NCBI GenBank assembly: GCA_016180435.1
Contig: JACPBG010000003.1
Span: 77,791 to 141,790 of the forward strand
Direction: 5' to 3'
DNA: 64,000 nucleotides
Source: Candidatus Sungiibacteriota bacterium
Lineage (GTDB): Bacteria > Patescibacteriota > Minisyncoccia > Sungbacterales > HO2-52-23
In this document: in pieces, positions 5,693-59,513 of the stretch
How the letters are laid out: every line of letters starts with the position of its first letter
How positions within the stretch are numbered: the first letter of the stretch is position 1
Made by a program: the position numbers and the translations under genes
The notes under the pieces: generated by a model
The model's database searches: none
Told to the model about the DNA's origin: nothing
Seen by the model: only the letters and a program-made list of their open reading frames with translations

Positions 5693-6172
5693 ATGTTGGA
5701 AAAAATTCAAAATGATATTAAAGATGCGATGCGGGCGCATGATGAACTTAAATTATCGGTTCTGCGGATGTTATCGGCTGCGATTCATAACCGCGAAATT
5801 GAGAAGAAATCCAGGGGCGGGGAGGCAGTTTTAACTGATGACGAAATTATCGCGGTTATCCGTTCTGAAGTGAAAAAACGGCGCGACGCGGTTGAGGGTT
5901 TTACTAAAGGCGGGAGAATGAATATGGCGGAGAAAGAGCAGATGGAGTCAAAAATTTTGGAAAGTTATATGCCGCAGGAATCGGCGGATGAGGAAATAGA
6001 AAAAATAGTGAAAGAGGTTATCGCATCAATGAGTGAGGATATAATAAAGCCCTTCGACCAGGCTCAGGGTAAAAATTTTGGTAAAATAATGGGTGCGGTG
6101 ATGAAAAAAATCGGGGGATTGGCATCGGGAGACAAGGTCAAGGCGGTGGTAGAAAAATTTTTGGTAAAATAG
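5693..6172 (+). CDS. GatB/YqeY-domain protein
   Basis: MLEKIQNDIKDAMRAHD...SVLRML; C-terminal GatB_Yqey-like region. Confidence 0.7.
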   Translation: MLEKIQNDIKDAMRAHDELKLSVLRMLSAAIHNREIEKKSRGGEAVLTDDEIIAVIRSEVKKRRDAVEGFTKGGRMNMAEKEQMESKILESYMPQESADEEIEKIVKEVIASMSEDIIKPFDQAQGKNFGKIMGAVMKKIGGLASGDKVKAVVEKFLVK

Positions 6173-6177
6173 AATTT

Positions 6178-6549
6178 ATGTCGAATAAACTGTTGCAAAG
6201 GATAAAAAAAAATCTTCCGGCCGCTGTTCGCATTAAGCTACCCCGTAAGGTAGCTATTATTAGCATCGAAGAAAAAGAATCCAGGGAATTAAACCTGGCT
6301 TATCGTGATAAAAATAAACCCGCCAATGTTTTATCCTTCCTTTATAGCCCTGAATATGGTGAAATAATTGTATGTCCGGCGGTTATCCGAAAAGAGGCAA
6401 AAGAGCAAAGAAATACGTATAGATACCAGATGACATGGATGATTGTGCATGGTATTATACATCTTGCGGGGATTCACCATGAGAAATCAGAAATTATGCG
6501 TAAAAAATTTGAGCGTATCGAAAGAAGTGCTCTCGGCAAATTATTCTAA
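6178..6549 (+). CDS. ybeY: rRNA maturation endoribonuclease YbeY
   Basis: HGIIHLAGIHHE zinc-binding H..H.....H motif. Confidence 0.8.
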   Translation: MSNKLLQRIKKNLPAAVRIKLPRKVAIISIEEKESRELNLAYRDKNKPANVLSFLYSPEYGEIIVCPAVIRKEAKEQRNTYRYQMTWMIVHGIIHLAGIHHEKSEIMRKKFERIERSALGKLF

Positions 6550-6667
6550 TTGTTCTAATTATTCTAATTGATCCAAATAAATCTACAATTTTCAATGTCC
6601 AAATTAGACATTAGTCATTGAGTATTGATTAGAATAATTAGGTCAATTAGGTTAATTAGAATAATTT
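6550..6667. repeat. Family D ('ctaatt/aattag') palindromic element
   Basis: ttgttctaattattctaattgatcc...attagaataattaggtcaattaggttaattagaataatt. Confidence 0.75.
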
Positions 6668-6672
6668 TGAAC

Positions 6673-7914
6673 GTGTCTCGTAACATCATCACAGCTTTAG
6701 ATGTCGGTACATCCACGGTGCAGGCCGTGATTGCCGAGAAACGCCGCGGCGAAGACAGCCCGCGTATTTTGGGCATTGGTATTTCTCCATCGCACGGGGT
6801 AAGGCGCGGAGTGGTGGTGGATTGCGATGATGCAAGTGCCGCAATCCAGGCCGCCATGGAAGATGCCCGAAAGGCAGCCGGAGTCCAAACGCGCTCGGTT
6901 TGGGTGACTGTGGGCGGCGCGCATGTTTCCGTTTCTTCTTCCCGTGGAATTATTGCGGTGTCGCGCGCGGACGGCGAAATTTCGCCCGAGGATGTGGGAC
7001 GCGCCATTGCCGCGGCCGAGACCTTTATCCCTAAAAATCCGAACCGTGAAATTTTGCATATGATTCCACGCGATTTCAGGGTGGATGCGGAGGCGGGTAT
7101 TAAAGATCCTATTGGAATGCATGGCGTGCGGCTGGAGGTGGATACCCTGATTATTGATTGTTCTCGGCCGTTTTTAAAAAATCTATTCAAATGTGTGGAG
7201 GGCGCCGGACTTAAAATCGTAGATTATGTGTTTTCGCCATTGGCCGCCGCTGAAGTTGTGCTTACCAAAAGGCAGAAAGAACTTGGATCAATGGTGCTGG
7301 ATATCGGAGGAGGTACCGCAAGCTTTATGGTGTTTGAGGAGGGGGTGCCGATACATGCCGGCGTTTTGCCGATTGGAGGCGGGCATATTACCAATGATGT
7401 TGCGATTGGGTTTCGTACAGATGTGGATGTGGCCGAAAAAATAAAGTTGGTATACGGGTCATGCCTTTCGGTGGAACTTCCCAAGCGCGAGAATATACGG
7501 CTGGCCGAATTTGTGGAGGGGGAATCGGCGCTTTATTCGCGTCGGGAACTTGCCGAGATTATAGAAGCCCGGCTCCGGGACATTTTTGAACTTCTGCAAA
7601 AGGAGCTTCGTAAAATTAATCGTGCAGCGCTTCTTCCGGGAGGAGTGGTGGTGGTGGGCGGATCAGCCGCCACCCGGGGCTTGATTGATTTGACCAAGCG
7701 CGAGATGAAACTGCCGGTTGCTATTGGTGTTCCGCAGGGATTTGAGATATCGGATGAAGAAAAGGCGTCCGCATTTTCCGCGGCTTTGGGTGTTGTGCGC
7801 TGGGCATATGCTAAAGGAGGCGGGGGCGATGGAGGGATTTGGTTGCGGGGCCGTAAATTAGGCGATTTTTCCGGAGACAAAATAATGAGCTGGTTTAAAT
7901 CGTTTTTACCATAG
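6673..7914 (+). CDS. ftsA: Cell division protein FtsA
   Basis: Actin-like ATPase: ITALDVGTS, LDIGGGTASF, GGGHITNDVA; C-terminal amphipathic helix. Start probably GTG/TTG at 6667-6673; the track ATG at 6625 lies inside the family D repeat. Confidence 0.8.
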   Translation: MSRNIITALDVGTSTVQAVIAEKRRGEDSPRILGIGISPSHGVRRGVVVDCDDASAAIQAAMEDARKAAGVQTRSVWVTVGGAHVSVSSSRGIIAVSRADGEISPEDVGRAIAAAETFIPKNPNREILHMIPRDFRVDAEAGIKDPIGMHGVRLEVDTLIIDCSRPFLKNLFKCVEGAGLKIVDYVFSPLAAAEVVLTKRQKELGSMVLDIGGGTASFMVFEEGVPIHAGVLPIGGGHITNDVAIGFRTDVDVAEKIKLVYGSCLSVELPKRENIRLAEFVEGESALYSRRELAEIIEARLRDIFELLQKELRKINRAALLPGGVVVVGGSAATRGLIDLTKREMKLPVAIGVPQGFEISDEEKASAFSAALGVVRWAYAKGGGGDGGIWLRGRKLGDFSGDKIMSWFKSFLP

Positions 7915-8083
7915 ATCATGAACAGAACGTCTTAGCAATTTTTGTCAGCTGCCTGGTTTTTCTGGGCGGTTTTGAATTATCTCGGACTCTTGTTGTTTAA
8001 ACTATGTGGATAAGGGGTGGAATATATGTGTTTTTGTCAACTTGCCAGAGAAATAAGTGTGTGCTACCTTGAGGGCGGAAATG

Positions 8084-8196
8084 CAATGATGCCAATCCAC
8101 AAATTTTATGCCAATTTAGCGAATTGCGAATAAATTTTAACAGATGTATATTCGCAATTTGTAGATTAGCATTAAATTCGCATCGGATTGGCATCA
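8084..8196. repeat. Family B element
   Basis: caatgatgccaatccacaaattttatgccaatttagcgaattgcgaat...gcattaaattcgcatcggattggcatca. Confidence 0.8.
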
Positions 8197-8201
8197 CATT
8201 T

Positions 8202-9305
8202 ATGCCTCAATTAAAACCCGACATAGAGTCATACGCGCGTATCAAGGTGGTTGGAGTCGGAGGCGGTGGAGGAAAAGCCATAACGCGCATGATTGACCAT
8301 AAAACCAATGGGGTTGATTTTATTAGCATAAATACCGACGCGCAGGATCTTCATTTCACTAAAGCCAAAACCAAAATTCATATCGGAAAAAATCTCACCA
8401 AAGGACTTGGCGCGGGCATGAATCCGGAAATCGGCAGGCAGGCGGCCGAGGAAAATCGCGATGAGATCCATGAGATATTGAAAGGCGCGGACATGGTGTT
8501 TTTAACCTGCGGTCTGGGAGGAGGAACCGGAACCGGAGCATCTCCCATTGTGGCTGAAGTTGCGCAGGATGCCGGTGCGCTGGTGATAGGAGTTGTAACC
8601 AGGCCCTTTAGTTTTGAGGGCGCGCAGCGCGGAAAAATAGCGGAAGAGGGATGGCATAAATTAAAAGATCGCGTGGATGCGCTGATCACAATACAAAATG
8701 ATCGCCTGCTTAATGTAATTACCAAAGACACCTCGCTTTTGAATGCGTTTGTGATTTGTGATGATGTATTGCGCCAGGCCGTGCAGGGAATTGCGGATTT
8801 GATCATTACTCCCGGAGTGATTAATGTGGATTTTGCGGATGTCCGAGCCATTATGCAGGATGCCGGATCCGCGCTTATGGGCGTGGGATTCGGAACTGGA
8901 GAGGACCGAGCGGTTACTGCGGCTAAATCCGCAGTCGGATCGCCTTTGCTTGAACTTTCCATAAACGGCGCGCGCGGGGTATTATTCAATATTTCGGGCG
9001 GATCGGATCTTACTATGTGGGAGATCAATGAGGCAGCCAAAGTGATTACCGAATCCATTGATCGCGAGGCCAAAGTTATTTTCGGGGCGGTGGAGGACGA
9101 GCGCCTGAAAAAAGGGGAAATTAAAATTACCGTGATTGCCACCGGATTTAATCCGAACAACGGAAACAATAATAATTTGCGCCTGCCTTTGCATCGGGAT
9201 GAAAAACAAGAGCCAAAAAAAACAGGGCAGGCGGAGAAACAACCGCAGTTGGAGGATAATGAATGGGATGCCGTGCCGGCCTTTTTGCGGAGAAAAGGGA
9301 AGTGA
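8202..9305 (+). CDS. ftsZ: Cell division GTPase FtsZ
   Basis: GVGGGGGKA and the tubulin signature GGGTGTGASP; ATG at 8202 immediately after the B element. Confidence 0.9.
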   Translation: MPQLKPDIESYARIKVVGVGGGGGKAITRMIDHKTNGVDFISINTDAQDLHFTKAKTKIHIGKNLTKGLGAGMNPEIGRQAAEENRDEIHEILKGADMVFLTCGLGGGTGTGASPIVAEVAQDAGALVIGVVTRPFSFEGAQRGKIAEEGWHKLKDRVDALITIQNDRLLNVITKDTSLLNAFVICDDVLRQAVQGIADLIITPGVINVDFADVRAIMQDAGSALMGVGFGTGEDRAVTAAKSAVGSPLLELSINGARGVLFNISGGSDLTMWEINEAAKVITESIDREAKVIFGAVEDERLKKGEIKITVIATGFNPNNGNNNNLRLPLHRDEKQEPKKTGQAEKQPQLEDNEWDAVPAFLRRKGK

Positions 9306-19906: not shown

Positions 19907-19985
19907 ATCAACGAATAACGAATCTTATTCGAATTTACGAATAAACAAGTTCGTATATTCGTAAGCCATTCGTTATTCGCTGATG
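19907..19985. repeat. Family A' ('cgaataacgaat' subfamily) element
   Basis: atcaacgaataacgaatcttattcgaatttacgaataaacaagttcgtatattcgtaagccattcgttattcgctgatg; it includes the pepA stop TAA. Confidence 0.7.
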
Positions 19986-21530: not shown

Positions 21531-21639
21531 GTGATGCCAATCTACAAATCTAATGCCAATATAGCGAATTGCGAATCGATTTATGTATAAGCATTCGCAA
21601 TTTGTAGATTAGCATTAAATTCGCATCGGATTGGCATCA
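21531..21639. repeat. Family B element
   Basis: gtgatgccaatctacaaatctaatgccaatatagcgaattgcgaat...gcattaaattcgcatcggattggcatca. One end gives the TGA of rpmB; the other abuts the GTG of pepA. Confidence 0.8.
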
Positions 21640-21852
21640 TTGCTGGTGTAGTTTTTTTAAACACTTCACGCAAATTTTTGCGCGTTTCCCGGCCACCTGT
21701 GGCGAGTCTCGCCCTGCGGTGCGGGATTCTAATCTAGCCCATTGTAAATTGGGGTATTTTCTTATGGTTTTTGCTGGGTTATAATGGCTGCGGAGGAAAG
21801 CGCGTTTACCGGCAATAGAGGATCCTTTGTGGCAAAGAAAACAAGTTTTCAT
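21637..21852 (-). CDS. rpmB: 50S ribosomal protein L28
   Basis: CFLCHKGSSIAGKRAFLRSHYNPAKTIRKYPNLQ resembles L28 (C.vtGKR...SHa.NaTKRrf.PNLq). Confidence 0.7.
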   Translation of the reverse strand: MKTCFLCHKGSSIAGKRAFLRSHYNPAKTIRKYPNLQWARLESRTAGRDSPQVAGKRAKICVKCLKKLHQQ

Positions 21853-22383
21853 GTCTTTACGAAATACGAATAGTTACGAATTTACGAATAATGTGCTATT
21901 TTATGTTTACTATACGTTTGAAATGGACATTTCGTGGCGCAAAATACGCAAGTATGCCCAATTTTAGTCCGCCCACCACGAGATATTGATATACTTGCTC
22001 GATGTGATTTTTCACGAATCTATCACCTTTTTTGATCTCTAATATTATCTTATCTTCAATTAGAAAATCCAGGAAGTTACTGCCGATTCGTTCATTCTGA
22101 TACTTGATGGGAAAATACGCTTGTTCTCGAAATTTTAATCCCGCATTTTTTAATGCAATCGCTACTGCGCGTTGATATACTTTTTCGCTGTTGCCAAATC
22201 CCAATTTATTGTATACGTCAAACAATATGCCTATTATTTGATAACTTAACTCCGGGTATACGAGATCTTCTCGTTTAAGCATGTGTCCCGCGTCCATTTT
22301 ATGAGATTATCATGGTTCGGAGATTTTTACAATAGTTAAGCGAGGATTCGTACATTCGTATTTAATTCGTATTTCGTAAAGAA
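21853..22383 (-). mobile_element. Putative autonomous family A element: TIR + GxxExxY/PD-(D/E)xK nuclease gene + TIR
   Basis: Left TIR tttacgaaatacgaatagttacgaatttacgaataat; right TIR (reverse complement) ctttacgaaatacgaattaaatacgaatgtacgaat; 133-aa nuclease ORF 21896..22297 in between. Confidence 0.6.
21896..22297 (-). CDS. GxxExxY-type PD-(D/E)xK nuclease-like protein
   Basis: GNSEKVY (G-x-x-E-x-x-Y) and ...FLDFLIEDKIILEIKKGD (D ... E-x-K). Paralog of 26509..26907. Confidence 0.7.
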   Translation of the reverse strand: MDAGHMLKREDLVYPELSYQIIGILFDVYNKLGFGNSEKVYQRAVAIALKNAGLKFREQAYFPIKYQNERIGSNFLDFLIEDKIILEIKKGDRFVKNHIEQVYQYLVVGGLKLGILAYFAPRNVHFKRIVNIK

Positions 22384-25911: not shown

Positions 25912-25994
25912 TTTTACGAAATACTAATCATTACGAATATACGGATTATTTGAAGACGTATTCGTAAATTCGTACTCATTCGTATTTCGTAAAG
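25912..25994. repeat. Family A element
   Basis: ttttacgaaatactaatcattacgaatatacgg...attcgtaaattcgtactcattcgtatttcgtaaag, then atc + ATG of rpsG. Confidence 0.8.
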
Positions 25995-25997
25995 ATC

Positions 25998-26465
25998 ATG
26001 CGTAGAAAAAGGAAATTCACCAGAGAAATAATTCCGGATGCAAAATACAGCAATGTCGCGATTGCCAAATTTATCAACTATGTAATGCGCAAAGGGAAAA
26101 AGTCCACGGCGCAAAAAGTGGTGTATCGCGCCTTTGATGTGATTGAGAAAAAACATCAGCAGGATCCGCTGGCGGTTTTTGATCTGGCTATGAAAAATGC
26201 ATCTCCTTTGATGGAAGTGCGGCCGCGCCGGATTGGCGGAGCTACATATCAGGTGCCGCGTGAAGTCCGGCCCGGGCGTAAAATGGCCCTTACCTATCGC
26301 TGGATTATCGCGGCGGCGCGTTCCAAGAAAGGCAAACCCATGCATGTAAAATTGGCGGAGGAATTGATCGCGGCTTCCAAAAACGAGGGGATGGCGATTA
26401 AAAAGCGGATGGATATGCATAGGATGGCCGAGGCCAATAAAGCGTTTGCGCATTTCGCCTGGTAA
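25998..26465 (+). CDS. rpsG: 30S ribosomal protein S7
   Basis: MRRKRKFTREIIPDAKY...KKSTAQKVVYRAFD... Confidence 0.9.
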   Translation: MRRKRKFTREIIPDAKYSNVAIAKFINYVMRKGKKSTAQKVVYRAFDVIEKKHQQDPLAVFDLAMKNASPLMEVRPRRIGGATYQVPREVRPGRKMALTYRWIIAAARSKKGKPMHVKLAEELIAASKNEGMAIKKRMDMHRMAEANKAFAHFAW

Positions 26466-26938
26466 AATTACTACGAAGGTACGAATTTTTACGAACGTAC
26501 GAATAATTATGCGGGAAATAAAAAAGAAAGATTTATTATATCCTGATTTAAGCTATCAAGTGGTTGGTATTTTATTTGAAGTATTTAATGAACTCGGTTA
26601 TCAGTATCAGGAAAAATATTACCAAAGAGCGATCAGCAAAAGTTTGCATCTGGTAGGCATTCCTTTTCAGGAACAAATTATTTTTCCAATAGAATTTAAG
26701 GGTCAGAAGATTGGCCGGTATATCTTTGATTTTTTAGTTGATAATAAAATTGTTTTAGAAATAAAACGTGGTGACACTTTTTCACCTCAAGATATCCGAC
26801 AAACGATCGCCTACTTAAAAAGATCAAATTTACGACTAGGAATCCTTGCTCGTTTTTCAAGCAAGGGTCTTAAGTTCAAAAGAATAGTAAATATAATTGA
26901 TTCGTAATTTTCGTATTTATTCGTAACTTCGTAGTAAA
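26466..26938 (+). mobile_element. Putative autonomous family A-type element (TIR-nuclease-TIR) inserted between rpsG and fusA
   Basis: Left attactacgaaggtacgaatttttacgaacgtacgaataatt; right (reverse complement) tttactacgaagttacgaataaatacgaaaattacgaatc. The nuclease ORF stop lies inside the right TIR; the fusA ATG follows immediately. Confidence 0.6.
26509..26907 (+). CDS. GxxExxY-type PD-(D/E)xK nuclease-like protein
   Basis: YQYQEKYYQRA (GxxExxY region) and IFDFLVDNKIVLEIKRGD (D ... E-x-K). Paralog of 21896..22297. Confidence 0.7.
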   Translation: MREIKKKDLLYPDLSYQVVGILFEVFNELGYQYQEKYYQRAISKSLHLVGIPFQEQIIFPIEFKGQKIGRYIFDFLVDNKIVLEIKRGDTFSPQDIRQTIAYLKRSNLRLGILARFSSKGLKFKRIVNIIDS

Positions 26939-29071
26939 ATGCCAAGAGAATATCCTTTAGAGAGTACCAGAGATATCGGCATTATTGCCCATATTGATGC
27001 CGGAAAAACGACCGTAACCGAGCGGGTGCTTTTTTATACCGGCGTATCGCATAAAATCGGCGAGGTGCATGAGGGCGATACGGTGATGGATTGGATGGAG
27101 CAAGAGCGCGAAAGGGGAATTACTATTACGGCGGCCGCAACGAATGTGTTTTGGGTGCCGACGCATGTCGGAGAACTTAGAACTGAGAACTTAGAACTTA
27201 GAAAAAAGAACGAATACAGAATAAATATCATAGATACTCCGGGACATATTGATTTTACCGTGGAGGTTCAGCGCTCACTTCGGGTATTGGATGGCGCGGT
27301 GGTGGTTTTTGACGGAGTGGCCGGAGTTGAGCCGCAATCCGAAACCGTCTGGCGCCAAGCCGATAAATTTAAAGTTCCGCGCATGTGTTTTATAAATAAG
27401 CTTGACCGCATGGGCGCGTCATTTGAGCGCTCGCTCAATTCCATTTATGAGCGACTAACCCCGAATGCGGTTTCGGTGGCAATACCCATAGGACACGAAC
27501 AGGAACACGAAGGCGTGATTGACCTTATGCGCATGAAGTCCGTGAAGTTTCTGGGAGATAAAGGAGAAAAACTTGAATTTGTTGAGATACCCGAGAATTT
27601 GAAATCCTATGCCGAGGAATGGCGCCATAAAATGGTTGAAAAAATTTCGGAAACGGATGACGCGCTTACGGATAAATATCTGGAAGGCAAAGAGATGACT
27701 GTCGAGGAACTGCGTGGCGCTTTACGCCGCGCGACCATTGGATATCGGCTGGTTCCGGTATTTTGCGGATCGGCGCTTAAAAATAAAGGCGTGCAGTTGA
27801 TGCTGGACGGTGTGGTTGATTATCTGCCCTCTCCTTTGGATATGCCGCCGGTAAAAGGAACTCATCCCAAAACCGGTGCGGAAGAAATTCGCGAAGCGAA
27901 AGATGATGCGCCATTTGCCGCGCTTGCTTTTAAATTGCAAACCGATCCTTATGTGGGACAACTTACATATTTTAGGGTTTATTCGGGCATGCTTAAAGCC
28001 GGATCTTATGTTTTAAATTCGGTAAATGGAGATCAGGAGAGGGTGGGGCGGATTTTGCGCATGCATGCCAATACCCGCGAGGAACTGAAAGAAATCGGCG
28101 CCGGAAATATCGGTGCGATTGTCGGTCTTAAAAATACCCGTACCGGAGATACGCTTTGCGATCCGGAGCATCCGGTTGTGCTTGAAAAAATCGTATTTCC
28201 CGAGCCGGTGGTATCTTTGAAAATTGAGCCCAAGACCAAGGCTGACCAGGAAAAAATGGGACTGGCCCTGCGGCGTCTGGGCGAGGAGGACCCGACATTT
28301 CGCATTAAAGGCGACATTGAGACCGGTGATACCATTATTTCGGGTATGGGTGAACTTCATTTGGAAATTATTGTGGATCGCATGAAGCGCGAATTTTCCG
28401 TGGAGGCCAATGTGGGCCGGCCGCAGGTGGCTTATAAAGAAACCATTAAAAAAACCGCGGAAGCGGAAGGAAAATATATTCGTCAATCAGGCGGACGCGG
28501 ACAGTACGGACATGCGTGGCTTCGGGTTGAGCCGCGCGAGCGCGGAAAGGGATTTGAATTTCTTGACGAGATCAAAGGCGGTATAATTCCGCAAGAATAC
28601 ATTCCGGCGATTGAAAAAGGGATTAAGGAGGCCATGGAAAAAGGTGTTTTGGCGGGGTACCCACTGGTTGATATGGCGGTCGCGGTTTATGACGGATCAT
28701 ATCATGAAGTGGATTCGTCCGAGGCCGCATTCAAAATCGCGGGTTCCATGGCTTTGCAGGAGTGCGTTAAGCGCGCGGGACTTGTGCTGCTTGAGCCGAT
28801 TATGAAAGTGGAGGTTGTGACTCCGGAGCAGTTTCTGGGCGAGGTTACCGGGGATTTGAATTCCAAGCGTGCGCGGATTGAAGAAATGTCCGAGCGCGGC
28901 CTGGGAATTAAGGTGATTGACTGCAAAGTTCCGCTTTCGGAAATGTTCGGATATGTTACGACTCTTCGTTCCTTGACGCAAGGCAGAGCCAGTTTTACTA
29001 TGGAATTTGATCACTACGAGGAAGTCCCGAATAATATTGCGCAGCTTATAATTGAAGGGAAGCGGCAGTGA
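26939..29071 (+). CDS. fusA: Elongation factor G
   Basis: [23 protein letters not shown] and all five EF-G domains. Contains a family F-encoded insertion ([15 protein letters not shown]) between G2 and G3. Confidence 0.95.
27172..27212. repeat. Family F heptad-repeat half-element, in-frame inside fusA
   Basis: gagaacttagaactgagaacttagaacttagaaaaaagaac. Confidence 0.7.
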
Positions 29072-29278
29072 TGCCAATCCAATGCGAATTTAATGTTTAC
29101 CCCGTTAGATAATAACCTTTTTTAAAAAGATGTGCTGTTGTTGTAAAAACCCTTTTAAAAATTTTATTGGTTGTCAAGAGATATCTAACGGGGCGAGTCT
29201 GGCGAATTGCGAATACTAAACACAAGATTTTATTAGCAATTTGTAGATTAGCATTTCATTTGTAGATTTGCATCATTG
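29066..29278. repeat. Family B element interrupted by a nested family G element
   Basis: cagtgatgccaatccaatgcgaatttaatg | G insert | tctggcgaattgcgaat...gcatttcatttgtagatttgcatca. Confidence 0.75.
29098..29193. repeat. Family G element nested in the B element
   Basis: tttaccccgttagataataacc ... agatatctaacggggcg. Confidence 0.7.
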
Positions 29279-29566
29279 CGTGCGAAGCACAAATAAAAAA
29301 TAGCGGCGTGGGACCGCATTAAGGCAAAAAGAGCGAGTCAATTTTAAACTTTAGTATATACACCCAACCGGCGCCTGCCACAATAATTGCAATAAAAATA
29401 AGAAAAGCGCCCCAGTCGAATTCGTAGATAAAACGTACGAGCGAAAATAAAATTTCAGAGATAGGACCTCGATCCGGCAGGGTGGGTAAAGAATATTCGT
29501 GCATAGCATTCTTTGTAATATATTATAGAGATCTATATTATGGACATATCAAAACTAAAAAATCTT

Positions 29567-29723: not shown

Positions 29724-29942
29724 ATGTCAATGGTCATAGAAAAAAAATATCACAAAAGTATTAGTGAGGTTTCGCGAAAGATGGGAATTAGAGAAAATGA
29801 TCTAGTGGGTCGTGCACTCGCTCTTTATTTAGATAGCGCAAAAAAAATTCTTGATGTAGAAAAAGAATTTAAGGCATGGGACGTTTTGAGCGATGAGTCG
29901 TTGGTTGGACTCGCTAAGCGTGTTCCAAGGCGGTCAATATGA
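29724..29942 (+). CDS. Putative antitoxin (partner of the MazF/PemK-like toxin)
   Basis: 72-aa ORF overlapping the toxin start by 4 nt (ATGA). Confidence 0.45.
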   Translation: MSMVIEKKYHKSISEVSRKMGIRENDLVGRALALYLDSAKKILDVEKEFKAWDVLSDESLVGLAKRVPRRSI

Positions 29943-30265
29943 AAAAGGGTGAAATTTGGTTGGTAGAAATTCCGGGCATTGACGGCCATGAACAGCGGGG
30001 ATTCCGCCCCGCGATTTTTATTGCGGACACCAAGACGGGCGTGGCCATAATTATTCCATGCACTTCTAATTTGCAAGCGCTTCGTTTCCCATTTACTATT
30101 CGTATTGAATCATCTCGCAGTAATGGATTAAATGAATTATCGGTTGCCCTGGTTCTTCAGCTTCGTGCTATTGATAAAAAGAGATTATTGAGAAAAATAG
30201 GACAACTTGATAATTCAGTTCTTAAAGAACTTGACGTGGTGATACGTAATCTTTTAGATTTATAG
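29939..30265 (+). CDS. MazF/PemK-family toxin endoribonuclease
   Basis: MKKGEIWLVEIPGIDGHEQRGFRPAIFIA has the typical PemK/MazF N-terminal signature. Confidence 0.75.
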   Translation: MKKGEIWLVEIPGIDGHEQRGFRPAIFIADTKTGVAIIIPCTSNLQALRFPFTIRIESSRSNGLNELSVALVLQLRAIDKKRLLRKIGQLDNSVLKELDVVIRNLLDL

Positions 30266-30382
30266 AGGACCAGTTTCGCGTACCCAAATAAAAATAGCGG
30301 CACGAGTCGAGGTAACCCATCGTGCATTCATTCTCGCTCTCCAATAAATAAGAACTACTATGGATATATCAAAATTAAAAAA

Positions 30383-30412
30383 TCTTGTCAAATATATATA
30401 GGAGATGGTATA
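30383..30412 (+). promoter_or_regulatory. Sigma70-like promoter for the hicBA cassette
   Basis: TTGTCA-N18-TATATT (cttgtcaaatatatataggagatggtatatt). The same ttgtcaa motif precedes the mazEF cassette. Confidence 0.4.
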
Positions 30413-30420
30413 TTGAAGAT

Positions 30421-30675
30421 ATGAAAAAACGACAAAAAATTAAAAAAGAAATCGCCACTTTTAATGCGGTATTTTTGGAAGAAAGCGATGGAGGATACAG
30501 CGTAAGTGTGCCTGCTTTGCCGGGCTGTTTTTCACAGGGTGATACCTTTGAAGCGGCCGTGGAAAATATAAAAGAGGCCATAGAACTTTATCTTGAAGAT
30601 GAATCTAAAGAGATTGATTTTTTGAAAGTTCGCCCTAAAAAAGAATTCATGGTACCAGTTGAACTTTATGCCTAA
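30421..30675 (+). CDS. hicB: HicB-family antitoxin
   Basis: FLEESDGGYSVSVPALPGCFSQGDTFEAAVENIKEAIELYLE matches the HicB/UPF0150 signature. Confidence 0.7.
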   Translation: MKKRQKIKKEIATFNAVFLEESDGGYSVSVPALPGCFSQGDTFEAAVENIKEAIELYLEDESKEIDFLKVRPKKEFMVPVELYA

Positions 30676-30895
30676 ATTGCCGCAGATTTCGGGAAAAGAG
30701 ATGGGGCGGGTTTTGGCTCGCCTCGGTTTTATATTCAAAAGCCAGAAAGGAAGTCATATGAAATTCATTCGCTTGCATGACGGCGCAAAAGAAATTATAG
30801 TAGTACCAAATCATAAAACGCTTCGTAAAGGAACATTTAGCGGCATATTAAAGCAGCTTAACATCACCTTTGAAAAATTACGCGAGCTGATGTAA
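30668..30895 (+). CDS. hicA: HicA-family toxin
   Basis: MPKLPQISGKEMGRVLARLGFIFKSQKGSHMKF matches the HicA/YcfA signature. Confidence 0.7.
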   Translation: MPKLPQISGKEMGRVLARLGFIFKSQKGSHMKFIRLHDGAKEIIVVPNHKTLRKGTFSGILKQLNITFEKLRELM

Positions 30896-30927
30896 TAAAA
30901 AATAGCGGTGCGGGTTCGTACACACAT

Positions 30928-31230
30928 ATGAGTGAAAAAATGGAAAAATTGAAAAGCGAAATATCTCCCGAAGAATATAAAAAAAAGCTTCTCACTGTTG
31001 CCGGCGAACTTTTCAAAGGGAAAGTCCCAAATTATTTCCTTGAATATCTTGATAATGATGAAATTGAAAGTGCCAGAGTATCACTTTTAGGCGCGATTGA
31101 TGCGTTCGTTTTTGGAAAAAATATATCAGATGAAGAAGCAAAAACAAAATATGAAATTCTGGGTTTTGATCCGGAGGAAGCAAGTAGGATCAGAAACTTA
31201 AGCAAAGCCAATAAAAGAAGATCTCAATAA
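30928..31230 (+). CDS. Hypothetical protein
   Basis: 100-aa ORF preceded by the same aaataaaaaatagcgg leader repeat. Confidence 0.4.
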   Translation: MSEKMEKLKSEISPEEYKKKLLTVAGELFKGKVPNYFLEYLDNDEIESARVSLLGAIDAFVFGKNISDEEAKTKYEILGFDPEEASRIRNLSKANKRRSQ

Positions 31231-31293
31231 TCAAATTTATTTTGCATTTTATTTTTTACGTTTTGTAGCAGAACAGCGATAAATTTTAAAAAT

Positions 31294-31593
31294 ATGGAGT
31301 GGGTAAAACTCAAAAATTTGGTAAAACAAAATGGAGATAAGTTTGTGTTGGTTGAAAATGGGGAGCCGGAAATTGTGATGATGTCTTTTCATGAATATCA
31401 GAAACTCGCTAATCATAATGCGAATACGGCGAATTTGCGTACGAATGTCACGAATCGCGAAGACGACAACTATTATATGGATGTATCCGCGGGCCGTTTG
31501 CCGGAAACCGAATTTGTATCACCCCACGAGTTAGAAGCGCCCGGACTTCCGGTGCGGCTTGAGGATATCCGGCTGGATGATCTGCCCATTTGA
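31294..31593 (+). CDS. Phd/YefM-like antitoxin-domain protein
   Basis: NGEPEIVMMSFHEYQKL resembles the Phd/YefM N-terminus; C-terminal extension; no toxin partner found. Confidence 0.45.
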   Translation: MEWVKLKNLVKQNGDKFVLVENGEPEIVMMSFHEYQKLANHNANTANLRTNVTNREDDNYYMDVSAGRLPETEFVSPHELEAPGLPVRLEDIRLDDLPI

Positions 31594-31791: not shown

Positions 31792-32991
31792 ATGGCAGAA
31801 GCCAAAAAATTCGAGCGGACCAAGCCGCATTTAAACGTGGGTACCATAGGGCATGTGGACCATGGTAAAACCACCCTAACCGCGGCCATAACCAAAGTAT
31901 TGAGTTTAAAAGGACTTCCTTCGCGCGTGGAGTCGGTGGATCAGATTGATAATGCTCCCGAAGAAAAAGCGCGTGGAATCACGATCGCGCTTCATCATTC
32001 CGAATACGAATCGGAAAAGCGGCATTACGCCCATATTGATGCCCCCGGACACGCCGACTATATTAAAAACATGATTACCGGCGCTGCCCAGATGGACGGC
32101 GCTATTCTGGTCGTGTCCGCAACTGACGGCCCCATGCCGCAAACCCGCGAGCACATACTTCTTGCTCGCCAAGTAGGAGTGCCGGCTGTTGTGGTGTTTT
32201 TGAACAAATGCGATGCCGTGGAAGATAAAGAACTGATTGATTTGGTTGAAGCCGAAGTTCGCGAACTTTTAAAAAAATATGAATTCCCAGGAGATCAGAC
32301 TCCCATTATACGCGGCTCGGCATTAAAAGCCCTGGACGCAAAATCAGCCGATGATGAATGGGCCAAACCGATAATAGAACTGGTTAGTGTGCTTGATTCT
32401 TATGTTCCGGAGCCTGTGCGCGAAGTTGACAGGCCGTTCCTCATGCCGGCCGAAGACGTTTTTTCAATCGAGGGCCGCGGTACGGTGGTTACCGGCAGGA
32501 TTGAGCGCGGCAAAGTTAAATTGAATGAAGAAGTAGAAATTATCGGTATGCGCGATACGCAAAAGACGATTGTTACCGGAATTGAAATGTTTAATAAATC
32601 GCTGGATGAAGGTATTGCGGGAGATAATGCCGGCATACTTTTGCGCGGACTCAAAAAAGAAGATGTGGAGCGCGGACAAGTGCTTGCCAAGCCGGGATCC
32701 GTAACGCCGCACACGGATTTTGAATCAGAGGTCTATATTTTGACCAAAGAAGAAGGAGGACGCCATACCCCGTTTTTCTCGGGATATAAGCCGCAATTTT
32801 ATATCCGCACCACCGATGTTACGGGGGAGGTTACGCTTGCCCAGGGAACCGAAATGGTAATGCCCGGAGATACTGTTAAATTCATAGTAAAACTCATTGT
32901 GCCGGTGGCTTTAGAGGAAAAACAGCGTTTCGCCATCCGGGAGGGAGGGAAAACAGTTGGAGCCGGAGTGGTTACGAAAATAGTGAAGTAA
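31792..32991 (+). CDS. tuf: Elongation factor Tu
   Basis: [22 protein letters not shown]; ATG at 31792. Confidence 0.95.
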
Positions 32992-32993
32992 TA

Positions 32994-33098
32994 AGCAGTG
33001 ATGCTAATCCGATGCGAATTTAATGCCAATTTAGCGAATTGCGAATGCGTTATCATTAGCAATTTGTAGATTGGCATAAGATTTGTAGATTGGCATCA
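32994..33098. repeat. Family B element
   Basis: agcagtgatgctaatccgatgcgaatttaatgccaatttagcgaattgcgaat...attagcaatttgtagattggcataagatttgtagattggcatca. Confidence 0.8.
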
Positions 33099-33109
33099 TA
33101 TGTGGTTCC

Positions 33110-35376: not shown

Positions 35377-36015
35377 ATGAAAATCAAAGTTTACAACCAA
35401 GAAGGAAAAGAAGCAGGAACTGCGGATTTGCCGGACGGTGTGTTTGGGTTGAAGTGGAACGCGGATTTGGTGCATCAGGTGGTAACTGGCCAGGCCGCGA
35501 ATTTGCGTAGAGGCACGGCGCATGCTAAAGGCAGAAGTGAAGTTCGCGGAGGCGGGAGAAAACCCTGGCGGCAAAAAGGCACCGGTCGCGCGCGCCATGG
35601 CTCTATCCGTTCTCCCATTTGGATCGGAGGAGGGGTTACGCATGGCCCCTTGAAAGAAAAAAGTTATCATAAAAAAATCAACAAAAAGATGGCAAAAAAA
35701 GCCCTTTTTACGGCACTTTCCGCCAAAGCGCGGGACAATGAAATTGTTATTTTGGAGGACTTGAAATTCTCGGAAGCTAAAACCAGGTATGCCGCAGAAA
35801 TTTTCAGGAATTTATCGCAAGTTGACGCGCTCAAAGACATTGTAAAAGCCAAAACTCTGCTTGCGTTTCCGGAAAAAAGCCATGATTTAAAGCGCGCATT
35901 TCGTAATTTGCCGCGAGTCGGCATGGACGAGGCCAGGAATTTGAATGCGCATGAAGTATTGCAGTACCGTTATATTCTTATGTCCAAAGCTGTGTTAGGA
36001 ATATTTAAGCAGTGA
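35377..36015 (+). CDS. rplD: 50S ribosomal protein L4
   Basis: GGGRKPWRQKGTGRARHGSIRSPIWIGGGV. Stop TGA is contributed by the family B element. Confidence 0.9.
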   Translation: MKIKVYNQEGKEAGTADLPDGVFGLKWNADLVHQVVTGQAANLRRGTAHAKGRSEVRGGGRKPWRQKGTGRARHGSIRSPIWIGGGVTHGPLKEKSYHKKINKKMAKKALFTALSAKARDNEIVILEDLKFSEAKTRYAAEIFRNLSQVDALKDIVKAKTLLAFPEKSHDLKRAFRNLPRVGMDEARNLNAHEVLQYRYILMSKAVLGIFKQ

Positions 36016-36172
36016 TGCCAATCCTATGCGAATTTAATGCCAATCTGGCGAATTGCCAATAAATATTCTTCGAGTGAAATCGAGATGATACCTTAATGTA
36101 TATTCTCGACAAGCTCGAATAGTAACGATTCGTAATTTGTAGATTAGCACTTCATTTGTAGATTCGCATCAT
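36009..36172. repeat. Family B element, long variant
   Basis: agcagtgatgccaatcctatgcgaatttaatgcc...ttcttcgagtgaaatcgagatgatacc...gattcgcatca. Confidence 0.8.
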
Positions 36173-36176
36173 ATTG

Positions 36177-40200: not shown

Positions 40201-40202
40201 TA

Positions 40203-40303
40203 TCAACGAATAACGAATCTTGCGCGAATTTACGAATAAACGAATTTATGGTGAGTAGAGTCGAACCATTCGTATATTCGTAATAAATTCGTTATTCGAT
40301 GAT
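40203..40303. repeat. Family A' element
   Basis: atcaacgaataacgaatcttgcgcgaatttacgaataaacgaattt...ccattcgtatattcgtaataaattcgttattcgatgat. Confidence 0.75.
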
Positions 40304-40317: not shown

Positions 40318-40608
40318 ATGAGGAAACTTAAAGGTATTGTCACATCCGATAAGATGCAAAAGACCGTCGGAGTGCGAGTAGATCGGTTAAAAAAACACCC
40401 AAAATACGGGAAATATTTTCGTACAACGCAAAAGTTTAAAGCACATGACGAAAAAGGGGAATATAAAATTGGCGATCTGGTTATTATTCAGGAAACAAGG
40501 CCGCTGTCCAAAGATAAAAGATGGCGTGCAGTTTCTTTAGTAAAACGCGGGATTGTGGAAACAGATGAGAAGGAAGAAAGCAGTGATGCCAATCCGATGC
40601 GAATTTAA
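40318..40608 (+). CDS. rpsQ: 30S ribosomal protein S17, C-terminus extended into the B element
   Basis: KGIVTSDKMQKTVGVRVDRLKKHPKYGK. The final SSDANPMRI* is encoded by family B sequence. Confidence 0.85.
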   Translation: MRKLKGIVTSDKMQKTVGVRVDRLKKHPKYGKYFRTTQKFKAHDEKGEYKIGDLVIIQETRPLSKDKRWRAVSLVKRGIVETDEKEESSDANPMRI

Positions 40609-40743
40609 TGCCAATCTGGCGAATTGCCAATAATTATTCTTCGAGTGTAATCGAGAAGTACCTTAGGGTATTATTCTCGACAAGCTCGAATGATAACCGA
40701 TTCGCAATTTGTAGATTAGCATAAGATTTGTAGATTGGCATCA
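40579..40743. repeat. Family B element, long variant
   Basis: agcagtgatgccaatccgatgcgaatttaatgccaatctggcgaattgccaat...ttcttcgagtgtaatcgagaag...gattggcatca. Confidence 0.8.
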
Positions 40744-40750
40744 TATTAAA

Positions 40751-41116
40751 ATGATCCAGCTTCGTTCTATGGTAAAAGTGGCAGATAATTCTGGGGCTGT
40801 TTTGCTCCAAGTTTTTCAGGTATCGCGCGGATCCCGCCATCGTTATGCGCGTATTGGCGATATGGTTGTTGCTTCGGTAAAAATTGCCGAACCTGGCAAG
40901 GCGGTTAAGAAAAAAGACGTTGTACACGCAGTGATTGTGCGAACGCGATCCCCGTATCGTCGCAAGGATGGGACCTATGTGCGTTTTGATGATAATGCCG
41001 CAGTAATACTTGACGGGACAGAACCCAAAGGAGGAAGGATTTTTGGTCCGGTAGCCCGGGAATTGCGCGATAGAGGATTTACAAAAATTGTTTCATTGGC
41101 GTCAGAAGTCGTATAA
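40751..41116 (+). CDS. rplN: 50S ribosomal protein L14
   Basis: [16 protein letters not shown]...[11 protein letters not shown]. Confidence 0.9.
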
Positions 41117-41280
41117 AGCAGTGATGCCAATCCTATGCGAATTTAATGCCAATCCGGCGAATTGCCAATAATTATTCTTCGAGTGAAATCGAGATGATAC
41201 CTTAATGTATATTCTCGACAAGCTCGAATAGTAACGATTCGTAATTTGTAGATTAGCATAAGATTTGTAGATTGGCATCA
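41117..41280. repeat. Family B element, long variant
   Basis: agcagtgatgccaatcctatgcgaatttaatgccaatccggcgaattgccaat...gattggcatca. Confidence 0.8.
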
Positions 41281-41287
41281 TATTAGA

Positions 41288-41596
41288 ATGAAAATAAAAA
41301 AAGGCGACACCGTAAAAATAACTTCGGGTAATGATAAAGGGAAGACCGGCAAGGTCATCCGGGCTTTCGGGAATGCAGGAAAAATCGTAGTGGAGGGTGT
41401 GAATATCCGCAAGAAACACGTCCGTCCGAAGCGCCAGGGACAGAAAGGAGAAATAGTCCGAATCCCGGCGCCATTTTTAGTATCAAGGGCCATGTTGCTT
41501 TGTCCCAAATGTGGGAAGCTCATTCGTCCGGGGATGATATTGCATGAAGACTCCGTAAAGGTCCGTATATGCAAAAAATGCAGTGCGGAGATTTAA
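41288..41596 (+). CDS. rplX: 50S ribosomal protein L24 with C-terminal zinc-ribbon extension
   Basis: MKIKKGDTVKITSGNDKGKTGKV (KOW motif); CPKCG...CKKC tail. Confidence 0.85.
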   Translation: MKIKKGDTVKITSGNDKGKTGKVIRAFGNAGKIVVEGVNIRKKHVRPKRQGQKGEIVRIPAPFLVSRAMLLCPKCGKLIRPGMILHEDSVKVRICKKCSAEI

Positions 41597-41606: not shown

Positions 41607-42149
41607 ATGCCGATCCAATCTTTACAAGAGCGATATAATAAAGACATTGTGCCGGCAATGGTGAAGCGATTCGGATATAAAAATATAATGGCCGTTCCAC
41701 GGATCCAAAAGGTTGTTTTGAATTGCGGAGTTGGGAAATTGCGCGACGAGAAACAGCGGGAAGAAGTGATCAAGTTTTTGACTTTAATTGCCGGTCAAAA
41801 GCCTTCGCCGCGCTCTGCGAAAAAAGCCATAGCGTCATTTAAAACGCGTAAAGGTCTTGTTATAGGATATCAAGTGACATTACGGGGAAGGCGCATGTAT
41901 GATTTCATTTCCAGGTTCACAGATATAGCGCTCCCGCGCACCCGTGATTTTAGGGGAATTGATGCAAAATCGTTTGATAGCGGCGGGAATTTGACAATTG
42001 GAATTAAAGAGCATATAGTATTTCCTGAAATGATCGGAGAGGATTACCATTTTTTGTTCGGCCTTGAAGTTACGATAGTGACCACGGCTCCAAGGCGAGA
42101 AGAGGGGGTTGAATTATTAAAGTTGATGGGATTCCCAATAAAGCAGTGA
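41607..42149 (+). CDS. rplE: 50S ribosomal protein L5
   Basis: NIMAVPRIQKVVLNCGVG...GMDITIVTTA-like core. Stop TGA is contributed by the B element. Confidence 0.9.
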   Translation: MPIQSLQERYNKDIVPAMVKRFGYKNIMAVPRIQKVVLNCGVGKLRDEKQREEVIKFLTLIAGQKPSPRSAKKAIASFKTRKGLVIGYQVTLRGRRMYDFISRFTDIALPRTRDFRGIDAKSFDSGGNLTIGIKEHIVFPEMIGEDYHFLFGLEVTIVTTAPRREEGVELLKLMGFPIKQ

Positions 42150-42256
42150 TGCCAATCCGATGCGAATTTAATGCCAATCTGGCGAATTGCGAATACCAAA
42201 TAAAGGAGTTTATTAGCAATTTGTAGATTAGCATAAGATTTGTAGATTGGCATCAT
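42141..42256. repeat. Family B element
   Basis: agcagtgatgccaatccgatgcgaatttaatgccaatctggcgaattgcgaat...gcataagatttgtagattggcatca. Confidence 0.8.
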
Positions 42257-42257
42257 A

Positions 42258-42446
42258 TTGATGGCTAAACAATCTGTCATAGCAAGGGCCCTAAAAAAAC
42301 CCAAATACAAATCCCGCTTAGTGCGCCGGTGTTTCCGTTGTGGCCGTAAACGCGGATATATGAGGGCGTTTGACGCGTGCCGGATTTGTTTCAGAGAAAT
42401 GGCAAACAGAGGGGAAATACCCGGAATAAAGAAAAGCAGCTGGTAA
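42258..42446 (+). CDS. rpsZ: 30S ribosomal protein S14 type Z (zinc-binding)
   Basis: 62 aa; [20 protein letters not shown]. Confidence 0.85.
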
Positions 42447-42453: not shown

Positions 42454-42538
42454 CTTTACGAAATACGAATCATTACGAATGTACGAATACATTTTATCAG
42501 ATTATTCGTAAATTCGTATATATTAGTATTTCGTAAAG
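42454..42538. repeat. Family A element
   Basis: ctttacgaaatacgaatcattacgaatgtacgaatac...attcgtaaattcgtatatattagtatttcgtaaag. Confidence 0.8.
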
Positions 42539-44239: not shown

Positions 44240-44326
44240 ATTTTACGAAATACGAATCATTACAAATATACGAATACGTTTTGGTAAGTTGATTCGTAAA
44301 TTCGTACCTATTCGTATTTCGTAAAG
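44240..44326. repeat. Family A element
   Basis: ttttacgaaatacgaatcattacaaatatacgaatacgttttggtaagttgattcgtaaattcgtacctattcgtatttcgtaaag. Confidence 0.85.
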
Positions 44327-47334: not shown

Positions 47335-48051
47335 ATGAACGAACCTATTTCATCAAAAAATAAATTTGCTATTAGTGTAATGGGTCCGCCGGGCTCCGGA
47401 AAAGGAACACAGGCGCAGATACTTGCCGGCGGACTTGAGGCCTTTCATTTTGTCACGAGTGTCGAGGGCAAAAAATATATTGCCGCCCATGACGATCCCG
47501 AAACAAAACGTCAAGAAGTCAGATATAAAAAAGGACTGCTTTTTGAATCTCCCTGGACACTCCGCGTGGTACAAGAAAAAACGCAGCGTGTTTTTGAGGA
47601 CGGGCTGAGTATTGTTTATGACGGTTCACCGCGTACCCCGCTTGAAGCAGAAAAACTGATCCCGTTTCTCATTAAACTTTTCGGCAAAGAGTGTGTCGTG
47701 GCCGTGGAACTTAAAGTCGGTGAAGCCGAATTGAGATCGCGTCTTTCCAAAAGGCGGGTATGCAGTCTTGATCATTCCCACGCTTTTATTGACTCGGAAA
47801 ATCATCATATTGGAGATTTATGTCCCAAGATGGATGGGGGAGTGTTGCAAAAAAGGGAGATTGACGAATCGGCGCTTTTTGAAACACGCATGGGAGAATT
47901 TAGAAATTTGACTATACCGGCCATTGAATTTTTTCATAAGGAGGACGTGCTTATTGTTATCAATGGCGAGCAGTCGATTGAAAATGTGCGGCGCGATATT
48001 GATGAGGCGTTTGCCAAAAGATTCGGTAAGCGGTGGCCCCGTGGAGTATGA
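47335..48051 (+). CDS. adk: Adenylate kinase
   Basis: MGPPGSGKGTQAQIL P-loop. Classic secY-adk-map order; stop overlaps the map start (ATGA). Confidence 0.8.
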   Translation: MNEPISSKNKFAISVMGPPGSGKGTQAQILAGGLEAFHFVTSVEGKKYIAAHDDPETKRQEVRYKKGLLFESPWTLRVVQEKTQRVFEDGLSIVYDGSPRTPLEAEKLIPFLIKLFGKECVVAVELKVGEAELRSRLSKRRVCSLDHSHAFIDSENHHIGDLCPKMDGGVLQKREIDESALFETRMGEFRNLTIPAIEFFHKEDVLIVINGEQSIENVRRDIDEAFAKRFGKRWPRGV

Positions 48052-56543: not shown

Positions 56544-56576
56544 CAAAAACCCGCGTAGGCGGATTTTTGTTATCCT

Positions 56577-56600: not shown

Positions 56601-56603
56601 GTT

Positions 56604-58172: not shown

Positions 58173-59513
<1,341 letters not shown>

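Follow-up and report, generated by a model that had tools for sequence, protein, structure and literature searches.

A gene for a GxxExxY-family PD-(D/E)xK protein lies inside an iteron palindrome between rpsG and fusA of a Candidatus Sungbacteria genome and recurs in this arrangement in other genomes

The gap between the genes rpsG and fusA was analysed in a 64,000-nt stretch (the window; all coordinates are window positions unless a locus is named) of the genome of an uncultured Candidatus Sungbacteria, belonging to the Candidate Phyla Radiation (CPR/Patescibacteria). This gap contains module C1, a small open reading frame (ORF) encoding a GxxExxY protein of the predicted PD-(D/E)xK nuclease type, enclosed by two arms of inverted TACGAA hexamers. 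Gene and arms recur together in other genomes, and the repeated word of the arms follows the subfamily of the protein. The explanation that we prefer, with a probability of about 0.45, is that C1 is the long-term resident copy of a widespread nuclease-in-palindrome module, similar to the system formed by REPINs (doublets of repetitive extragenic palindromic, REP, sequences) and RAYTs (REP-associated tyrosine transposases) but built on an unrelated nuclease fold.

Module C1 between rpsG and fusA

The gap has 473 bp (26466-26938) and lies between rpsG (25998-26465, plus strand), identified by its ORF and translation and encoding ribosomal protein S7, and fusA (26939-29071, plus strand), encoding elongation factor G (EF-G) and identified by the EF-G Pfam domains of the orthologous gene in locus L004. 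The inverted repeat begins 2 nt after the rpsG stop codon and reaches out to a TTAC/GTAA pair (26468-26937). The left arm (26468-26508) shows the TTAC clamp, four TACGAA hexamers (26472-26503) separated by the spacers gg, tttt and cg, and a final taatt. It is followed by the GxxExxY/PDDEXK_3 nuclease ORF (26509-26907, plus strand), which encodes 132 aa with the putative catalytic residues E35, D74, E84 and K86, and by the right arm (26901-26937), which contains four TTCGTA hexamers (26901-26933) and the GTAA clamp. The first right-arm hexamer overlaps the ORF stop codon (26905-26907), and 5 nt separate the end of the right arm from the fusA ATG. The initial annotation had described this gap as a left arm, a 132-aa ORF and an inverted right arm that holds the ORF stop next to the fusA ATG, and the coordinates agree with it in every detail. 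In the repeat search the arms were recovered as 28 nt with 86% complementarity, and the window has 13 instances of the three-hexamer array pattern, versus none in 100 dinucleotide-preserving shuffles. The C1 ORF is 100% identical to the NCBI entry "GxxExxY protein [Candidatus Sungbacteria bacterium]", and three independent Logan contigs show 100% identity to the window across the module. Exact look-ups of the window EF-G and of the second GxxExxY protein of the window gave no record. Metagenome samples with this organism include SRR4343430 and SRR12113425. An Rfam scan of the window gave only the RNase P RNA and two tRNAs, and no known RNA family at the module.

The GxxExxY protein

The matches of the C1 protein in Pfam and NCBIfam are limited to PF13366 PDDEXK_3 (E-value 5e-28, 98.3 bits, cut-off 22) and TIGR04256 GxxExxY (E-value 3.4e-28, 98.3 bits, cut-off 35), which bears out its first assignment, made from motifs, to the PD-(D/E)xK nucleases of the GxxExxY type. 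The protein shows the motif residues G30-x-x-x-x-E35-x-Y37, D74 and E84-I-K86; none of the four residues E35, D74, E84 and K86 varies among 82 homologues. Its fold is a confident PD-(D/E)xK fold, with a restriction-endonuclease-like alpha/beta core, and is closest to Cas4. From the invariant E, D and ExK residues and this fold, it is likely an active nuclease. Cas4/RecB-type nucleases differ from it in size (about 200 aa versus about 130 aa) and share 16% identity with it, and the CRISPR context of Cas4 is without counterpart at the module. The GxxExxY protein has no PDB sequence match at E < 0.05, and so no solved family structure could be reached by sequence. Searches against the PADLOC defence models gave only weak Cas4 and DRT-PDDEXK matches (E-values from 7e-4 to 7e-3), those against PHROGs gave only marginal matches, and no known transposase family was matched in Pfam, NCBIfam, PADLOC or PHROGs.

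The family is large, with about 15,500 clusters at 50% identity: among 1.84 billion cluster representatives, the GxxExxY profile gave 15,489 matches with E <= 1e-3 and 4,369 with E <= 1e-10. Many members of about 265 aa consist of two tandem GxxExxY domains (P0130, P0135, P0140, P0143 and others), which suggests that the working unit may be a dimer. A few domains are fused into larger proteins of up to 815 aa. GxxExxY/PF13366 was listed as "function unknown" in a 2012 survey (PMC3424549). No description of an association between GxxExxY genes and palindromes, no function for the family and no functional work later than 2012 were found in the searchable literature.

The module in other genomes

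Three other assemblies contain CPR homologues with 65-74% identity and the same four-plus-four hexamers: two of these modules are located at rpsG-fusA and one between pilC and a pilin-like gene. A metagenome scan with the family profile gave 80 loci with 49-67% identity. Among 75 distinct modules, the arms are clearly TACGAA in 46, TACTAA in 11, TACAAA in two and TACGGA in one, they are weak in 12, and three modules show none. The link between arms and ORF, claimed at first from the window alone, therefore holds in about 60 of the 75 distinct homologous modules from other genomes and metagenomes (49-74% identity). The modules are found at at least 41 different genomic junctions, of which rpsG-fusA is the most recurrent (eight times), followed by pilT-pilC, pilC-pilin, hydrogenase-hypA and spacers between ribosomal-protein genes. 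Their general layout comprises three to four hexamers per arm, with a period of 8-10 bp, and a short base-paired clamp in the outermost position. In most of them the start codon of the ORF lies against or partly within the last left hexamer, its stop codon overlaps the first hexamer on the right, and only a few nt separate the outer ends from the stop and start codons of the neighbouring genes. In this comparison the GxxExxY gene and its palindrome form one unit that is conserved in many CPR genomes and at many junctions. In Sphingomonas parapaucimobilis (L176, NZ_CP155749.1, 482837-483265) a GxxExxY gene is located between fabD and fabG, in the fatty-acid synthesis operon, which suggests that a position between adjacent genes of a conserved operon may not be limited to CPR.

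One locus (L151, Ga0078972_1001013, 8140-8345) contains arms around a GxxExxY ORF of which only the first 24 and the last 37 codons are left, so that the catalytic core is lost. This deleted copy adjoins a full copy (5995-6399) and tandem arrays of extra arms. As a deletion intermediate it shows how ORF-less palindromes arise through loss of the ORF, and the relation between autonomous and ORF-less copies that was proposed from the window gains from it a route. A phage origin of the module was also considered and rejected: the arm pattern has no matches in IMG/VR, and the protein has none in 50,697 phage records.

Conservation of the arms

Arm pairing was analysed in 20 strictly parsed modules and compared with shuffles (n=500). 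Between left and right arm the hexamers show 95% identity, while the inner spacers reach 57% versus 44 +/- 4.5% in shuffles, barely above background. The outer 4-nt clamp covaries (70% versus 41 +/- 5%, with a maximum of 57% among the 500 shuffles), and so does the outermost spacer. The variant hexamers TACTAA, TACAAA and TACGGA change in concert across the arms and the spacers are free to vary, and in orthologous rpsG-fusA modules the hexamers are kept while S7 identity drops to about 54%. These comparisons show a selection on the hexamers that acts at the level of the sequence itself. The constraint consists of a repeated 6-bp word together with pairing or identity of the extreme ends, as expected for a folding DNA repeat recognised by a protein. 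Arm mismatches on the sense strand are six G.U, nine A.C and 37 others, and this lack of a G.U excess over A.C speaks against selection for an RNA helix. No sigma-70-like promoter sites were found on the arms, the promoters of CPR themselves being unknown.

Iterons and protein subfamilies

Outside the TACGAA type, the repeated word differs together with the protein. The operon of locus L143 (Ga0076091_110, 5972-8290) shows three GxxExxY modules in three consecutive spacers, whose arm words (TACGGA, TACGAA and an ATGCGRA-like word) surround three different paralogues. A protein with six TACAAA units (L140) is 75% identical to one with TACGAA arms (L117). The nearest protein neighbour is of the same hexamer type in nine of 14 minority-type modules. 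A global test of protein distance against hexamer type gave no significance (358 of 2000 permutations), owing to the predominance of TACGAA, and the nearest-neighbour view alone is informative. Few arms beyond those of the modules themselves were seen in the flanks retrieved for minority-type genomes, too few to match ORF-less copies to the resident nuclease by hexamer type.

More distant homologues from annotated replicons, among them those of Bacteroidota and Gemmatimonadota, show other words. In Bacteroides finegoldii (L175), the GxxExxY gene next to radA (31% identity) is flanked by 30-nt arms with three CAGAGGA/CCTCTGT units. The protein of Bernardetia (L177), which is 55% identical to that of Bacteroides and encoded at another locus, has ACAGAGA/CTCTGT arms. 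One Gemmatirosa paralogue (L179), which shares 49% identity with the protein of Bacteroides, is followed by a palindrome with three GCAGAGGA units, and the other (L173), 35% identical to the window ORF, by a palindrome with three CGCGGAT units. CAGAGGA-type iterons are therefore common to Bacteroides, Bernardetia and L179, and CGCGGAT is the word of L173; a tblastn search of the GC-rich Gemmatirosa protein against plasmids gave only itself. The Treponema gene (L171, 34% identical to the window ORF) shows an 11-bp inverted repeat, ACACGGATTCG, and the Sphingomonas gene between fabD and fabG shows three CGCGAAG-like units, upstream only. Taken together, these loci show an iteron type that tracks the protein subfamily across phyla and differs between paralogues of one genome. 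From these protein-matched iterons, which are the best available evidence and indirect, we infer that the protein may read its repeat.

Module C2 and ORF-less palindromes of the window

A six-frame translation of the window contains only two GxxExxY ORFs, C1 and C2, and both are within TACGAA/TTCGTA arms. Module C2 (21856-22380) consists of a left arm (21856-21888) that begins with TTTACGAAATACGAA and has four TACGAA hexamers, an ORF on the minus strand (21896-22297) encoding 133 aa, 50% identical to the C1 protein, and a right arm (22347-22380) with four TTCGTA hexamers that ends in TTTCGTAAA; an M50 peptidase gene starts a few nt further on with its ATG at 22385.

Family A is further represented in the window by seven clear palindromes without an ORF, about 66-83 nt long, and by one degenerate copy. 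The clear copies are located a few nt upstream of rpsU (S21; 2918-2983), in the rpsL-rpsG spacer, which is filled by it (25913-25993), and directly upstream of rplC (L3; 34543-34623), rpsH (S8; 42455-42537), rpsE (S5; 44242-44325), rplO (L15; 44832-44915) and tpiA (51596-51679); the degenerate copy (197-277) has two plus four hexamers and a long loop. As hairpins, the ORF-less copies reach from -27 to -34 kcal/mol (z from -4.2 to -7.3). They are mutually 71-87% identical, with the exception of the pair upstream of rpsE and rplO, which is 99% identical. Their identity is 73-79% to the arms of C2 and only 61-66% to those of C1, so that C2 rather than C1 would be their partner, should they have one among the resident genes. 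The initial description of family A as the arms without the ORF stands for the relation between ORF-bearing and ORF-less copies, and does not stand for C1 as their source.

Age of the rpsG-fusA copy

The rpsG-fusA junction was surveyed in 80 genomes retrieved with an S7 query. Ordinary bacteria have a gap of 10-40 bp there, and several CPR genomes one of 2-39 bp; compared with the ancestral state, the module is therefore an insertion, and the empty site that had been looked for in relatives exists in related CPR genomes. The GxxExxY module is found at this junction in eight diverged lineages, in which the pairwise identities of GxxExxY (55-83%), S7 (51-85%) and EF-G (63-79%) run in parallel. 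Seven of the eight proteins fall in two clusters and the one of L107 elsewhere. Because its divergence parallels that of S7 and EF-G, the simplest reading is that the module was inserted long ago, has since been passed on together with the locus, and in some lines has been lost or replaced. This does not agree with the fresh mobile insertion proposed initially, and comes in part near to an ancient fixed gene, which that proposal had named as the finding that would speak against it. Recent horizontal homing into rpsG-fusA, which could be thought of as near S7 relatives lack the gene and distant ones have it, was ruled out as the main story by the same parallel with S7 and EF-G.

The nearest S7 relatives (71-75% identity) are without the GxxExxY gene and show other insertions or a tight junction at rpsG-fusA. 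The cargo at this site includes pairs of antitoxin-like and RelE/ParE-like ORFs recognised by motif, PF05635 plus NUDIX genes, an RRM protein and other palindromes, and the junction is an insertion hot spot. The gaps of L011, L012, L014, L016 and L019 contain an antitoxin-like ORF (M.TITIEIPKK...) and a RelE/ParE-like toxin, several of them apparently frameshifted; a Pfam search of these ORFs gave no match. In L013 (CAYIFD010000014.1, 4465-5406) genes for a PF05635 "23S rRNA intervening sequence protein" and a NUDIX protein are located between the arms tcaaaatgcaaaatg and cattttgcattttg, apparently a parallel small-ORF-in-palindrome module with a different protein.

Change is seen over deep time, in the form of the 41 or more junction contexts, the deletion intermediate L151 and the single 99%-identical ORF-less pair. 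No evidence was found for current transposition, as judged by target-site duplications, near-identical ORF copies and three independent assemblies, which are identical across the module.

Proposed mechanism and comparison with known systems

In the REPIN/RAYT-like reading that we prefer, the nuclease, probably as a dimer, would recognise the hexamer array on folded or single-stranded DNA, and its cutting at the arms would maintain or propagate the palindromes. The ORF-less family A copies would be non-autonomous derivatives served in trans, and a non-covalent nuclease fold would rely on host repair or replication for copying. Recognition of the arms by the nuclease and mobilisation of the arms by it are both what we infer from the sequences compared above.

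Several observations weigh against this reading. PD-(D/E)xK enzymes are not known to form covalent intermediates and so would perform no strand transfer alone. No target-site duplication or flanking direct repeat was found at any of the ten window copies, and the two near-identical ORF-less copies are 590 bp apart and may come from local duplication or gene conversion. In other genomes, ORF-less copies near the module are absent from 20 kb of L004 and few elsewhere, and mobilisation in trans is therefore not generally evident. The flanking repeats of the Prevotella gene (L178) and of the Fusobacteria plasmid gene (L172) are direct and not inverted. Finally, at least five other palindrome families fill spacers of the window with no associated nuclease gene in view, so that palindrome spread may need no dedicated nuclease; family A is special among the window palindromes solely in having a nuclease gene in its loop.

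The REPIN-RAYT system also shows a nuclease gene flanked by inverted copies of a repeat that is dispersed intergenically as hairpin doublets, and target-site duplications are lacking in both systems. RAYT genes are of low copy number and kept vertically over long periods, and the GxxExxY gene, which co-diverges with S7 and EF-G at rpsG-fusA, may resemble them in this. They differ in that RAYT is an HUH/Y1 transposase similar to the TnpA of IS200/IS605, while the protein described here is a PD-(D/E)xK GxxExxY protein encoded inside the loop of one doublet, in hosts from CPR and other phyla. A REP is a single GC-rich hairpin with a GTAG/CGTC tag (PMC3733652), whereas the arms described here are AT-rich arrays of three to four hexamers without the GC-rich palindrome. 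Insertion sequences (IS) and their MITEs (miniature transposable elements with inverted repeats) share with the module the terminal inverted repeats around a protein gene and the ORF-less derivatives by internal deletion, but the module lacks target-site duplications, a known transposase family and recent ORF copies, and shows an extreme compaction in which start and stop codons overlap the repeats.

I-Ssp6803I is a PD-(D/E)xK homing endonuclease. Such enzymes are likewise small proteins of selfish inserts within conserved, highly expressed genes or operons. The GxxExxY module, in contrast, is without intron or intein, its insertion sites are many and unrelated (at least 41 junctions), and its conserved DNA partner is its own arms and not an empty target allele. 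The ORFs of 23S rRNA intervening sequences (PF05635, a four-helix bundle) are also small, lie in an inverted-repeat loop and are inserted in genes of the translation apparatus; they differ from GxxExxY in fold, and the module is outside rRNA (20 loci) and its arms show no wobble signature. A position in rRNA intervening sequences, which had been expected for GxxExxY genes, was looked for and not found in those 20 loci, in which Rfam gave no rRNA around the gene; C1 itself lies between protein genes. On these defining features the module is outside the RAYT, IS/MITE and rRNA intervening-sequence families, and probably outside that of the homing endonucleases.

Alternative explanations

The initial annotation considered the unit as a classical autonomous transposon with MITEs, in which GxxExxY would be the transposase or excision nuclease and family A would be its recent deletion derivatives. 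The terminal inverted repeats around a nuclease ORF, the ORF-less copies together with the deletion intermediate, the number of junction contexts and the empty rpsG-fusA junctions of other CPR genomes agree with such an element. Against it, target-site duplications were not found, the C1 and C2 ORFs are only 50% identical and no near-identical copies exist, and the protein matches no known transposase. Moreover, C1 has kept one and the same junction in eight lineages and diverges there in step with S7 and EF-G, family A is closer to C2 than to C1, viral contigs and phage records gave no matches, and no PD-(D/E)xK protein of this size is known to transpose DNA alone. We regard this explanation as unlikely.

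A stationary gene with cis-regulatory iterons seems to us improbable to a similar degree. According to it, GxxExxY would be a cellular or domesticated nuclease and the arrays its operators, for example for autorepression; the ORF-less copies would be relics or extra sites, and no mobility would be left. This would suit the ATG and stop codons that abut or overlap the hexamers in most modules, the long residence at fixed junctions, an apparently low copy number and the covariation of iterons and protein, as between operator and regulator. It leaves unexplained why the arms are inverted and clamp-paired, why the module occurs at at least 41 unrelated junctions and why genes without relation to each other are preceded by ORF-less copies at seven to eight places of the window; the invariant catalytic residues argue for cleavage beyond binding, and the arms show no sigma-70-like promoter, with the same reserve as to CPR promoters.

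An element acting at the RNA level is very unlikely. Its arms would pair in the polycistronic transcript as in a 23S rRNA intervening sequence, and RNase III or RNA cleavage by GxxExxY would excise the insert; the downstream mRNAs would be left almost without leader, in a genome that lacks Shine-Dalgarno sites. Upstream regions of about 50 window genes show almost no Shine-Dalgarno-like motifs, the ORF-less copies form strong hairpins that end a few nt before start codons, the outer clamp covaries, and the PF05635 protein of L013 is found in analogous arms at the same junction, all of which fit. Against this explanation, G.U mismatches are not in excess over A.C and the inner spacers keep no pairing, the modules occur in either orientation relative to the host genes (C2 is antisense), none of 20 loci scanned with Rfam has its GxxExxY gene inside an rRNA gene, and the D/ExK catalytic set is typical of DNases.

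Homing into pre-existing palindromes, by a selfish passenger that cuts cognate loops and is copied in by repair through arm homology, would account for an ORF always exactly in the loop, for arms that give about 35 bp of homology per side, for the other window families that spread and nest without visible nuclease and for the match of iteron type to protein subfamily, but is hardly probable, since seven to eight ORF-less copies are left unconverted beside two resident genes, recent ORF copies are absent, the L151 remnant shows the change from ORF-bearing to ORF-less, and most other genomes have no ORF-less targets near the module.

Significance of the association

Its recurrence in dozens of other bacteria suggests an undescribed partnership of a nuclease and a palindromic repeat. 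Tentatively, and with rather less than even odds, GxxExxY proteins may form an unrecognised class of iteron-specific nucleases, in which each subfamily reads its own repeat (TACGAA, CAGAGGA, CGCGGAT and others) and creates, maintains or spreads palindromes in several phyla and in the spacers of essential operons. If this were true, the module would be an independently evolved PD-(D/E)xK counterpart of the RAYT/REPIN partnership. The comparison gives the family a genomic grammar, with the gene in or next to short-iteron arrays whose sequence follows the protein subfamily. It may help to explain why repeat families are found inside the ribosomal-protein operons of CPR, whose genomes leave almost no room between genes. 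The family would also offer a natural collection of small nucleases with different sequence specificities, provided that each subfamily reads its own word of 6-7 bp.

Spacer context and other palindromes of the window

The elements probably abut stop and start codons simply because spacers in these streamlined genomes have only 2-30 nt; empty spacers of relatives often have 2-12 nt. We do not think that the position next to codons needs a special function, and RNA processing, as in the third alternative above, would explain the position too. A special translational or promoter role for an arm that ends just before an ATG was rejected, since empty spacers of 2-12 nt force the abutment and no sigma-70-like sites were found. 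In many window genes a strong hairpin ends a few nt before the start codon.

The other repeat families of the window are GATGCCAATCC.../...TTTGTAGATTGGCATCA, GAACTTAGAAC/CTAAGTTCT, ACAAATCCACAAATG/CGTGGATT, CCCCGTTAGA/TCTAACGGGG and family B, with ATCAACGAATAACGAAT ends; they are a sign that these genomes allow palindromes to spread, and insertions of one into another occur. The GATGCCAATCC...TTTGTAGATTGGCATCA palindromes have 110-190 nt and occupy many spacers, mostly just upstream of the start codons of genes in the ribosomal-protein cluster (for example 935-1097, 8083-8197, 21531-21643, 32973-33099, 36007-36175, 40578-40747, 41116-41302, 42141-42259 and 59512-59667). One copy (29065-29300) is split by a nested CCCCGTTAGA/TCTAACGGGG palindrome. 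The GAACTTAGAAC iterons form intergenic palindromes at 38643, 39392, 43707 and 61033, are read through in frame inside fusA (27171-27205) and are also found inside the ORFs 12128-13030 (at 12774-12798) and 48033-48857 (at 48375-48399). A full GAACTTAGAAC palindrome (56937-57006) is contained in the RNase P RNA gene (56572-57090, minus strand), which has 519 nt versus the 367 positions of the model.

Family B contains three ORF-less palindromes (19907-19984, 40202-40303 and 63529-63613) with ATCAACGAATAACGAAT outer ends and inner TACGAA/TTCGTA hexamers. The window shows no ORF of the GxxExxY subclade that matches family B; in other metagenomes, ATCAACGAATAACGAAT outer ends flank this distinct subclade (L113, L117, L147, L135, L137, L138, L169, L114 and L140).

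The str operon of the window organism is repeatedly interrupted by small accessory genes. Four small ORFs are located between fusA and tuf (29939-31593), including a PemK/MazF toxin gene (29939-30265; PF02452, E-value 2e-22). The rpsL-rpsG spacers of the CPR genomes L011, L014, L015, L018, L019, L053 and L105 each show their own iteron palindrome, with different words of 6-8 nt, and that of L095 contains a TACTAA/TACGAA palindrome in the same place as the window copy.

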